Source of the DNA: Candidatus Latescibacterota bacterium
Lineage (GTDB): Bacteria > Latescibacterota > UBA2968
Direction of reading: 5' to 3'
DNA length: 64,000 bases
Assembly (NCBI GenBank): GCA_965208125.1
Contig: OZ242320.1
Coordinates: 3,808,001-3,872,000, forward strand
Shown here: piece after piece, positions 58,546-60,309 of the stretch
How the letters are laid out: every line of letters starts with the position of its first letter
How positions within the stretch are numbered: the stretch's first letter is position 1
The notes under the pieces: model-generated
What the model saw: only the letters and a program-made list of their open reading frames with translations
The model's database searches: none
Told to the model about the DNA's origin: nothing
Translations under genes and position numbers: made by a program

Positions 58546-60309
58546 ATGAATGCGATTTATCCTGAAACCGAATACAACTTCGTAATAGGCAAAAGTCCGC
58601 AAATGCGGGAAGTCTATCGCCAGATGCAAACGGCTGCCAAAGGGGCGGGAAGCGTGCTGATTGCAGGAGAAAGCGGCACAGGAAAAGACCTGGTCGCTCA
58701 GTACATCCACCACAAAAGCGGTCGCGCCCCAAATCCCTTTGTGCCCGTGAATTGCGGCGCTATTCCCAAAGAACTCTTTGAAAGCGAACTGTTCGGACAC
58801 AAAAAAGGTTCTTTTACCGGCGCCGTAAACGAAACCGCTGGCCTTTTCAGATCTGCTGATACAGGGACCATATTTCTGGATGAGATTACCGAAATTCCAC
58901 TCGAAACCCAGGTCAAACTTTTGCGCGTTCTTCAAGAGAAGCGCATTCGCCCCCTCGGAAGCACGGAAGAAATTCCCCTGGATGTCCAGGTCATTGCAGC
59001 CACCAACCGCGACCTGGAGCAGGTGCTCTGGAACAGAAGCTTCCGGGAAGATCTCTATTACCGGCTCGGGGCAGTCACCATCTATATCCCGCCCCTGCGG
59101 GAACATTTAGAAGACATCCCGGAACTGGTCGCCGCTTTCATCCAAAAGCTCAACCGGCGCCTTAAACGCAACATCCTGGGCGTTCACCCAGATATAATGC
59201 AAAACCTCACCAAATATTCCTGGCCCGGCAATGTACGTCAGCTTGAAAACGTCATTGAGAATGCATATTTGTTTACCAAAGGGAAGTGGATTACCAGGTT
59301 GGGGGTGAAACTCGAAGAGGATACCCAATCTCTTGTGAGATCCACAGGAGAAATTAGCACATCCCTGGATCCGAGCGAATTCTACTTGCCGTCCAAAGCG
59401 ATGTCAACCTCCTTGAGACGGAAAATTCAAAGTGCAGCAAAAAGTCCGGCAGGCGTGTTGATCCTGGGAGAAGAAGGGACCGGTTGCCATATGATTGGAC
59501 GGGAAATTCACCGTCAGAGCACCTATGCCAAGGGTCCCTTTGTCATCGTCAACTGCGATACGATTCCACCCGAACTTTTTGAAAAAGAGCTGTTCGGGAA
59601 TTCCATTTTTGAAGATACGCAAGAACATTTTGAAGGATATATGCACCAGGCCGAAAGCGGCACGCTCTTTCTCTACGAAGTCACGACCATACCGTACCGG
59701 ATTCAGGTGCTGCTGTGTCGCTTGTTCGAAGCAGACAGGATGCGTCCGACCGGGTTTTCCAGGGACCTTCCGAAAAATCTTCGCGTTATTGCCTATACGT
59801 CGCAAGATCTGCATCAGGCTTTGAAAGAGAAAAGTCTATCCGTTGGGTTATATACCCGATTGAGTGGGTTTGTCATTCACATTCCGACTTTGCGGGAACA
59901 AAAAGAGAAAATTCCAGAATTCGCAGATTATTTTGTCAAATTATTCGCCACTCAGCAACAACGTCCGGCTCCCCAAATTCACGACAAAGCACTGGCATCT
60001 CTGATGGCCTATTCCTGGCCGGGCAATCTACTGGAACTGCGCTTTGTTATCCAGGGTGCTCTTACTGCGGCGAACTTTGGCACAATTCAAAAACACCACC
60101 TGCCAGACCAACTGGGCATACACTGGCAGACGGATGGACACACAGACACACGGGGCAAACTCTACGATGTAGAGCAGGATTTACTTCAAGAAGCACTTCA
60201 AAAAGCCGATGGAAACAAAACCCAGGCCGCTCGACTTCTCGGTATCTCCCGGAAAAAGGTTTACAAAATGTTGGAAAGTTCACCCCTTCATCATGAATCC
60301 GGATTTTAA
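58546..60309 (+). CDS. Sigma54-dependent activator with two tandem AAA+ domains and a Fis-type HTH, no sensory domain
   Basis: Domain 1: [49 protein letters not shown]. Domain 2: [53 protein letters not shown]. Confidence 0.9.

Follow-up and report, generated by a model that had tools for sequence, protein, structure and literature searches.

The DNA analysed here, referred to below as the window, is a stretch of 64,000 nucleotides from the genome of a Candidatus Latescibacterota bacterium (contig OZ242320.1, positions 3,808,001 to 3,872,000 of the forward strand). The gene under study, at 58546–60309 (+) of the window, encodes a sigma54 activator (P0001) with two AAA+ domains in tandem. Its frame is uninterrupted, with 587 amino acids and zero internal stops. 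Pfam searches gave two matches to Sigma54_activat (residues 13–179 and 286–444), two to AAA_lid_14 and one to HTH_8. The protein is divided into a first AAA+ module composed of Sigma54_activat and its lid (AAA-1, residues 13–251, 58582–59298 (+)), an inter-domain linker of about 35 residues that is predicted to be disordered (residues 252–285, 59299–59400 (+)), a second AAA+ module with degenerate motifs (AAA-2, residues 286–520, 59401–60105 (+)) and a Fis-type helix-turn-helix (HTH) DNA-binding motif (residues 541–574, 60166–60267 (+)). The HTH_8 score of 45.7 bits identifies the C-terminal Fis-type HTH that is expected of bacterial enhancer-binding proteins (bEBPs). Sigma54_activat scored 230 bits for AAA-1 scanned alone and 126 bits for AAA-2 (E = 1.3e-36), with a Pfam cut-off of 20.2. 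The two modules share 42% identity across 216 residues, and AAA-1 matches PspF structures at E = 6e-49. The open frame begins just 14 codons 5' of the ATG (601 amino acids in all), leaving no room for an N-terminal sensor domain. An initial annotation, made from the sequence alone, had described a sensor-less activator whose full-length AAA-2 carries the HTH; both points were borne out by the frame and the Pfam layout. Two AAA+ modules per chain with a short linker in between is also the defining layout of type II AAA+ proteins. An AlphaFold2 (AF2) model of the full-length monomer, with an alignment of 26 tandem sequences as input, gave confident individual domains and predicted the fold of AAA-2 over its full length at a per-residue confidence (pLDDT) of about 80–88; the linker had a pLDDT below 50, and the template-modelling score of the whole chain (pTM) was 0.44.

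Motifs were read residue by residue in an alignment to ZraR (1ojl) and in a domain alignment of the family. Every motif of AAA-1 is intact: the domain keeps GESGTGK, GSFTGA, LDE, ATNR, REDLYYR and WPGNVRQL, the key residues being K47, the GSFTGA loop at 88–93, D112/E113, R167-D169-R173 and R231. AAA-1 unites the Walker A (GxxGxGK), Walker B (DE), sensor I and sensor II motifs of a bEBP in a single domain and also supplies the GAFTGA-type L1 loop and the trans-acting RxDxxxR motif; AAA-2 has neither the complete set nor the latter two elements. Walker A of AAA-2 is GEEGTGC (Lys replaced by Cys314), and Walker B is LFLYEV (Asp replaced by Tyr377, with Glu378 kept). The GAFTGA sequence of the L1 loop is gone, with a two-residue deletion (P0157 has a five-residue insertion there), sensor I is YTSQ (Asn to Ser) and sensor II is WPGNLLEL (Arg to Leu496). 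The RxDxxxR motif has become SVGLYTR, in which the first Arg is Ser432, the Asp is Gly434 and the last Arg, Arg438, is kept; two of the three trans "R-hand" residues are gone, and the last Arg is invariant in 7/7 aligned family members. The RxDxxxR of AAA-1 is kept in 8/8 family members, as REDLYYR but as REDFFFR in P0002, a 580-residue protein returned by a whole-library phmmer search that is 51% identical to the activator and colinear with it over 1–578. The L1 loop of AAA-1, GSFTGA here, is GAFTGA in orthologs and GAYTGA in P0002. P0002 shows the same live/dead pattern, with other residues at the dead positions of AAA-2 (GEEGTGG, LYLRE, SLILYAR and WPGNFLEM); the linkers of the two proteins are alike in length, with 4/33 residues identical. 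Judged by its motifs, the protein is a sigma54 enhancer-binding protein with a canonical AAA-1 and a predicted dead AAA-2. Every motif call made for the two domains in the initial annotation was correct; losses of the R-hand Asp and the sensor I Asn, and retention of the last R-hand Arg, are additions to its list.

AAA-2 is held by purifying selection and is not in neutral decay. The ratio of nonsynonymous to synonymous substitution rates (dN/dS) was calculated by the Nei-Gojobori method (NG86) on three lineages (the window genome, denoted G000, as well as G005 and the G007-group) and evaluated with Fisher tests. For AAA-2 it was 0.239, 0.313 and 0.261, with 24–28 nonsynonymous and 24–28 synonymous differences, and neutrality was rejected at p = 1.2e-4 to 1.3e-6. 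The corresponding values for AAA-1 were 0.069, 0.066 and 0.105 (0.07–0.11 when rounded), and AAA-2 is relaxed relative to AAA-1 (p = 0.002–0.05). Neutral evolution of AAA-2 would have counted against the view, taken in the initial annotation, of the dead domain as a maintained functional module; the dN/dS of 0.24–0.31 (p ≤ 1.2e-4) speaks for that view instead.

The window genome, a single 5.75-Mb contig, contains 25 strongly matching sigma54-type AAA+ domains, and only the gene at 58546–60309 has two of them; AAA-2 scored 128 bits in the genome-wide scan, compared with 216–247 for the remaining sigma54-type AAA+ domains. Full-length orthologs with 92–93% identity are present in 3/20 congeners (G003, G005 and G007), and G015 has a disrupted copy. 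When AAA-2 plus the HTH was used as a query against 168 genomes of the phylum, six matched at E ≤ 1e-55; five are the activator carriers, and the sixth match is an ordinary 494-residue activator with 40% identity. A collection of 5.8 billion proteins yielded seven 90% clusters sharing AAA-2 at 74–95% identity, the next matches being at about 36%. One source labels its copy a protein of a Gemmatimonadota metagenome-assembled genome (MAG). Of the seven cluster members, P0158 has a frameshift within AAA-2 and P0156 ends before the HTH. Seven of the eight other family sequences aligned are free of stops and frame breaks, P0158 being the exception; the 155-residue fragment P0279 lies outside this count. 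After "RDLPK", P0158 follows an alternative frame, and the same frame is open for 193 codons in the window (59715–60296). A search of proteins of 30–321 residues found no split stand-alone AAA-2–HTH protein and returned P0279 (91% identity) together with two generic activators (35–37%). A scan of genome contigs with generic patterns kept 80 loci, which were ordinary activators or unrelated tandems, none of the activator's family. In an independent sponge-metagenome run, one 36,794-nt contig covers 58200–61900 without gaps and with 148 differences. The tandem activator is not an assembly artefact: the congener orthologs, the metagenome relatives and P0002 show that the architecture is not unique to this assembly, and the junction is spanned by the independent contig, which removes two objections foreseen in the initial annotation. 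The activator or close relatives occur in sponge, coral-reef and marine metagenomes (20 runs from 12 studies), a distribution that points to a marine, host-associated lineage. Runs X1, X5, X11 and X16 were the ones compared with the window; the shares in the RNA runs X17–X20 are small (0.10–0.15).

Identity to P0002 is 146/238 in AAA-1 and 110/235 in AAA-2. In a domain tree of 78 rows, the AAA-1 and AAA-2 sequences of five family members form separate congruent clades (98* and 100*, respectively), with an AAA-2 stem of 1.56 and a P0001–P0002 path of 1.65 for AAA-2 versus 0.75 for AAA-1. Given the congruent clades and the identical pattern in P0002, the tandem form and the death of AAA-2 are older than the P0001–P0002 split. 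A free quick tree search did not settle the relation between the two clades. In an approximately unbiased (AU) test, the tree with both domains as one clade was better than the free search by 50.9 log-likelihood units (p-AU = 0.90), and a 63-nt stretch with 71% DNA identity is shared by the two halves of the activator gene (G015 copy). The test and the DNA likeness together favour an origin of AAA-2 by internal duplication of the AAA+ module.

Downstream of the activator gene lies a sigma54-type promoter candidate, TGGCATGTTTTTTGCT (60487–60502 (+), with GG at 60488–9 and GC at 60500–1), 180 bp past the activator stop and 122 nt before the next start codon, that of a stand-alone receiver gene. 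It is one of four matches with ≤ 1 mismatch in the 64-kb window. G003, G005 and G007 have a perfect TGGCAC-N5-TTGCT at the orthologous position (3/3 full-length orthologous loci), and the −24 and −12 elements are invariant with a variable spacer in 4/4 loci. The genome contains one Sigma54_DBD gene, rpoN, so that both the sigma factor and a −24/−12 promoter are present, with 60487–60502 as the candidate target. P0002 lies on a 2.8-kb contig in a different neighbourhood, where its gene is likewise followed, on its own strand, by a hairpin and by a GG-N10-GC element, TGGCATATCCTTTGCG, the latter about 265 bp downstream, just before a new open reading frame (ORF) that is cut by the contig end. 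In the window, a perfect 10-nt inverted repeat, TGCCAGACAA / TTGTCTGGCA, with arms 20 nt apart (60452–60491), overlaps the −24 element with its right arm; the left arm has one change in G005. The repeat could be an operator occluding the promoter, or the activator's own site placed unusually close. RNA contigs from two sponge metatranscriptome runs of one study cover the activator gene, and one of them crosses the linker. These contigs begin at 58480 and 58543, with none upstream of 58480; they end at 60428 and resume at 60537/60538, flanking the promoter, and the DNA run is continuous there. The 60487–60502 promoter predicts a transcription start about 25 nt before this restart. The pattern is a weak hint of two transcription units. 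One contig of run X1 joins 59023 to 60007 and skips 983 nt; it has a depth of 5.87 and 21 letters on its shorter side. With so short an overlap, a skip that is not a multiple of three and a join between paralogous domains, it is unreliable and was treated as chimeric.

The activator gene is preceded by a region (58335–58545 (+)) with a hairpin and T-run after an Ldh_2 gene, followed by the activator's own promoter region. It is followed by the gene for the stand-alone receiver (133 residues, 60624–61025 (+)), by an outer-membrane beta-barrel protein (OMP) gene, the first conserved gene downstream of the cassette (61105–61815 (+)), and by a gene for a CarboxypepD_reg plus Plug TonB-dependent receptor (61828–63999 (+), running off the window; 1017 residues in G019). 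The order enolase-CPBP-Ldh_2-activator-receiver-OMP-TonB receptor is kept in 4/4 relatives, with 92–93% identity for the activator and about 85–89% for the receiver-like protein; four of the five flanking genes are 96–99% identical, and the CPBP gene is 91–95% identical. Two congeners, G019 and G006, have the order enolase-CPBP-OMP-TonB, with an orthologous OMP at 91% identity and no cassette. In G019 the homolog of window positions 58330–58537, containing the terminator hairpin and the activator promoter region, is joined straight to the OMP ribosome-binding site, which indicates that the activator, the intergenic region and the receiver gene constitute one 2.5-kb indel. A second indel accounts for Ldh_2, which G019 and G006 lack. 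The cassette history may be either an insertion or a loss in relatives. The Ldh_2 family gene (57222–58310) has a GC content of 0.55–0.63, compared with 0.45–0.53 in its surroundings. The small OMP gene has many paralogs: each genome of the genus contains 3–21 matches, and these often neighbour CarboxypepD_reg/TonB-type receptors. Two insertion sequences lie in the G015 locus (L102, 7025–7965 and 9539–10736): an IS5-like element with perfect 19-nt inverted repeats disrupts the activator gene, and a second, encoding a 374-residue transposase, is located between the activator and receiver genes. The 5' fragment of the G015 activator gene is 99% identical to that of G000 and the remainder 92%, which suggests recombination.

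The product of 60624–61025 matches Pfam Response_reg with 37.6 bits (cut-off 30.2). Alignment with the AdeR receiver shows the acceptor Asp in place (VID), with Gly80 (Ala in some orthologs) at the position of the conserved Thr and Gly103 at that of the Lys. The complete receiver triad of Asp, Thr/Ser and Lys is absent, and by these residues the protein is an atypical or pseudo-receiver. Its gene co-occurs with the activator in 5/5 carriers and is found in 0/16 non-carriers among the 21 congeners; the carriers are probably one clade, so the co-occurrence amounts to one event and not five. A complex prediction of the pseudo-receiver with the activator gave an interface score (ipSAE) of 0.35 (runs 0.39, 0.31 and 0.35) versus 0.00 for the best of three controls, on a scale where the passing mark was reached by 58/80 solved complexes and 2/110 mismatches and where scores of ≤ 0.60 comprise 7/80 of the former and both passing mismatches. 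Contacts agreed in ≥ 64% across runs, and the partner had a pLDDT of ≥ 74. The modelling weakly supports docking of the pseudo-receiver on the activator, and the pass may reflect likeness to solved receiver–AAA+ arrangements (NtrC1 and related).

The tandem layout is not confined to this family. Among 271 proteins gathered, 33 have two or three sigma54-type AAA+ domains, of which eight are the activator's family and 25 are others; the latter are cluster representatives found among the best 150 matches (the P0003–P0091 set). They are 29–38% identical to P0001 (19/25 aligned), most differ at the C-terminus or are extended at the N-terminus, and in several of them one domain is degenerate. The decay varies: the first domain (d1) loses its R-hand, the second (d2) loses Walker A/B, or only L1 is lost. 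In P0015, P0016 and P0031, d1 keeps Walker A/B and has lost the whole RxDxxxR, and d2 has lost the Walker A Lys and the Walker B DE and keeps RxDxxxR and a GAFT-type loop, a pattern that, by its motifs, would be expected for an obligate alternating ring. In P0008, P0012, P0013, P0018 and P0025 only the d1 R-hand is lost. Literature searches found no characterised member of these other tandem families. Long matches resembling tandem AAA+ activators are also present at L013 6001–7890, L124 5021–7421 and L146 6001–8537, one of them in an Intestinimonas MAG and two on metagenome contigs. In G000, open frames of 1066–1117 amino acids hold at least nine of the 29 Sigma54_activat matches and a frame of 1649 amino acids holds one, and frames of 1500–1690 amino acids recur in congeners; very long activators whose N-terminal parts are large seem to have undergone a paralogous expansion.

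Full-text literature searches, together with passages of reviews, yielded no description of a bEBP with two AAA+ domains. The initial annotation had not recognised the architecture as characterised, which agrees with this search; the class itself is not unique, as the 25 other tandem representatives show. A Foldseek search against the PDB gave 899 matches at E ≤ 0.001; the 48 matches listed were all of the single-AAA+ sigma54-activator type and none had two AAA+ domains. Forty-five of those listed align over about 230–255 columns with a TMq of 0.36–0.40. Three NtrX chains align over 565–586 columns at a root-mean-square deviation of 27–29 Å and were rejected as no real two-domain match.

We tentatively favour a homomeric AAA-1 ring in which AAA-2 is a second-tier scaffold or regulatory module and which activates the sigma54 promoter past its own gene. 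AAA-1, keeping all cis and trans ATPase residues and the sigma54-contacting loop, would be the motor, and six chains would assemble the usual homomeric AAA-1 ring, as the motifs and the analogy with known bEBPs suggest. AAA-2 would be unable to hydrolyse ATP, to touch sigma54 via an L1 loop or to donate a complete R-hand; located between the motor and the HTH, it may make up a second tier, or a layer at the periphery, by which the motor is held to enhancer DNA, and may serve as an assembly or regulatory platform in place of the missing N-terminal sensor. The activator would be expressed from its own promoter and would fire the 60487–60502 promoter to express the pseudo-receiver, OMP and TonB-receptor genes, and the pseudo-receiver may act back on the activator in the way PspA acts on PspF. 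The data establish the anatomy, selection, age and cassette structure, along with the conservation of the promoter and a presence in RNA libraries; how the chains assemble, what AAA-2 does, which promoter is served and whether there is feedback are the parts of this reading that we infer. A stacked ring with a regulatory dead domain had been the second option of the initial annotation and is viable and favoured here.

The ring argument draws on PspF. Substitution of R162, D164 or R168 in the trans RxDxxxR of PspF abolishes ATPase activity and gives constitutive hexamers (Joly et al., 2012; PMC3419264). Activation is not efficient in linked-dimer PspF when wild-type (WT) and L1-defective subunits alternate, since it requires a pair of neighbouring L1 loops (Darbari et al., 2014; PMC4132715). 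In a closed alternating ring of the activator, every AAA-1 site would be opposite SxGxxxR and each L1 loop would be separated from the next, so such a ring should have no active site; yet the catalytic set of AAA-1 is strongly constrained, which argues for a homomeric AAA-1 ring. An R-hand kept in AAA-1 at 51% divergence makes sense only against a live site, and AAA-1 should hence face another AAA-1. P0015, P0016 and P0031, whose d2 is cis-dead, have a d1 without R-hand, which indicates that a conserved R-hand signals a live partner site.

The initial annotation had placed first a covalent pseudo-heterohexamer, a trimer of tandem domains. In such an arrangement three chains would close a planar ring (1-2-1-2-1-2), and AAA-2 would be a non-catalytic spacer completing the AAA-1 sites via Arg438. 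Non-catalytic subunits that complete neighbour sites are known in F1-ATPase (the alpha subunits) and in the clamp loader (delta-prime), and P0015, P0016 and P0031 show the complementary cis/trans decay expected of such rings. The geometry is feasible, since engineered linked-dimer PspF forms functional hexamers, and alternating WT/E108Q PspF still works (PMC4132715); the last R-hand Arg, which AAA-2 keeps throughout the family, was named as the NtrC1 finger by Chen et al. (2010; as cited in PMC3419264). We nevertheless disfavour this arrangement as quite unlikely: the R-hand of AAA-2 is defective, without counterparts of R162 and D164, both of which PspF needs for its ATPase activity, the ring would have zero adjacent functional L1 loops, which PspF requires, the R-hand that AAA-1 itself conserves would be aimed into a dead pocket, and the decay is not complementary, unlike that in P0015, P0016 and P0031. 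A main reading in which Arg438 marks AAA-2 as an F1-alpha-like finger donor was set aside because the R162 and D164 equivalents are also needed (PMC3419264). Alternatively, AAA-2 might be a built-in decoy that occupies the protomer–protomer face of AAA-1 in an off state, replacing the N-terminal sensor of NtrC1/DctD-type negative control, and is released, possibly by the pseudo-receiver or by a ligand in the degenerate P-loop pocket, to let AAA-1 rings form. Such a role would fit the absence of a sensor domain, the conservation of a catalytically dead AAA-2 with an invariant P-loop backbone, and a pseudo-receiver that is found strictly together with the activator, shows a similarly raised rate of evolution and is weakly supported as a docking partner (ipSAE 0.35 versus 0.00 for the best of the controls). 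AF2, however, docked AAA-2 on AAA-1 without confidence (pTM 0.44), and complex prediction reported no interface. In addition, the pseudo-receiver gene lies downstream of the presumed target promoter, which would make its product a feedback element only and not the primary signal. We regard the decoy as unlikely.

AAA-2 could also be a duplicate on its way out, a decaying remnant with the sole role of linking AAA-1 to the HTH. Several findings that weigh against a maintained two-tier activator point in this direction: the gene is patchy and not needed by every lineage (in 5/21 congeners, absent from 16/21, and in 0/147 other genomes of the phylum), it is split between codons 104 and 105 in G015 by the insertion sequence, and P0158 is frameshifted inside AAA-2, which could be a sequencing error or a real pseudogene. 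AAA-2 also evolves 2–3 times faster than AAA-1. A dN/dS of 0.24–0.31, far below 1, argues the other way, as do the intact frames of 7/8 other aligned family sequences, the predicted full-length fold (pLDDT about 80–88) and the live/dead pattern conserved at 51% identity; a simple linker would not need 235 conserved residues. Decay of this kind is very improbable. The favoured homomeric AAA-1 ring faces further difficulties. In AAA-2 of the aligned family neither the P-loop backbone GEEGTG nor Glu378 varies, so AAA-2 may still bind a nucleotide or another ligand. AF2 gave no confident inter-domain packing for the monomer (pTM 0.44), so that the two-tier arrangement is something we purely infer. 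The ring argument is weakened by carrying PspF rules over to a distant protein, and the R-finger assignment is disputed, NtrC1 R299 being the Arg that AAA-2 retains (PMC3419264); under the NtrC1 assignment AAA-2 could complete AAA-1 sites in an alternating ring. As to the promoter, the sigma54 pattern with ≤ 2 mismatches occurs 44 times in the whole window versus 38.8 expected, which is chance level, and its conservation is a weak test, since identity across the whole intergenic region is already 91%. All contigs behind the RNA evidence come from one study, and DNA carry-over is possible.

Among known systems, PspF of E. coli resembles the activator in being sensor-less, with AAA+ followed by an HTH, and its negative regulator PspA, encoded in the target operon and acting in trans, is the model for the proposed role of the pseudo-receiver. 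PspF has one AAA+ domain and the activator two, and the PspF partner is a PspA-type coiled coil, whereas the candidate partner modelled here is receiver-like. In HrpR and HrpS of Pseudomonas syringae, both usually described as keeping ATPase and GAFTGA motifs, the two modules are separate polypeptides with an HTH each; the modules of the activator are covalently joined and one of them, AAA-2, lacks both competences. HrpR/HrpS share with the activator that paralogous sensor-less AAA+ modules from a duplication work together (PMC3105312), and they are listed among the hexameric bEBPs (PMC3467059). Engineered single-chain PspF, in which two bEBP AAA+ domains, one live and one mutated, are linked, is a laboratory analogue of the activator (PMC4132715). 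It is artificial and forms a planar alternating hexamer, and it lacks efficient activity in its alternating L1-dead form, an argument for a different organisation of the natural activator.

In type II AAA+ proteins one tier is often hydrolysis-dead and structural, as in NSF D2 and Pex1/6 D1, a formal parallel to the AAA-2 layer proposed here. These proteins (NSF, p97, Pex1/6, ClpA/B) and ATAD2-type tandems share two AAA+ modules and a short linker with the activator and form stacked rings (PMC5447069, PMC4490564). They belong to other AAA+ clades and thread substrates; bEBPs are clade 6 AAA+ "switches" (PMC7973254), and stacking is conjectural for the activator. A more far-reaching version of the favoured homomeric AAA-1 ring, which we consider doubtful, is that of a natural "type II" enhancer-binding protein, in which an AAA+ motor ring sits on a pseudo-ATPase ring that provides nucleotide-independent assembly and a docking surface for the pseudo-receiver; the activator would then be a member of an unrecognised recurrent tandem class.

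The tandem sigma54-type AAA+ architecture recurs in metagenomes, and the literature searches found no account, for this kind of regulator, of a live AAA+ domain joined to a dead copy that selection has kept. The cassette would be a compact route to sigma54 control of an operon: the stretch that separates an existing promoter from its genes holds an activator, its promoter and a small partner gene. The number and arrangement of active subunits in bEBP rings have been approached with doped mixtures and with engineered single-chain PspF; the activator is a naturally evolved single chain with one live and one dead module, selected since before P0001 and P0002 diverged to 51% identity. Knowing its structure and the number of chains in it would directly tell apart alternating rings, stacked rings and decoy subunits as the natural solution in this family. 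The differing decay patterns among the tandem families offer a comparative test and, if true, would be natural experiments on which, and how many, AAA+ subunits must be active.

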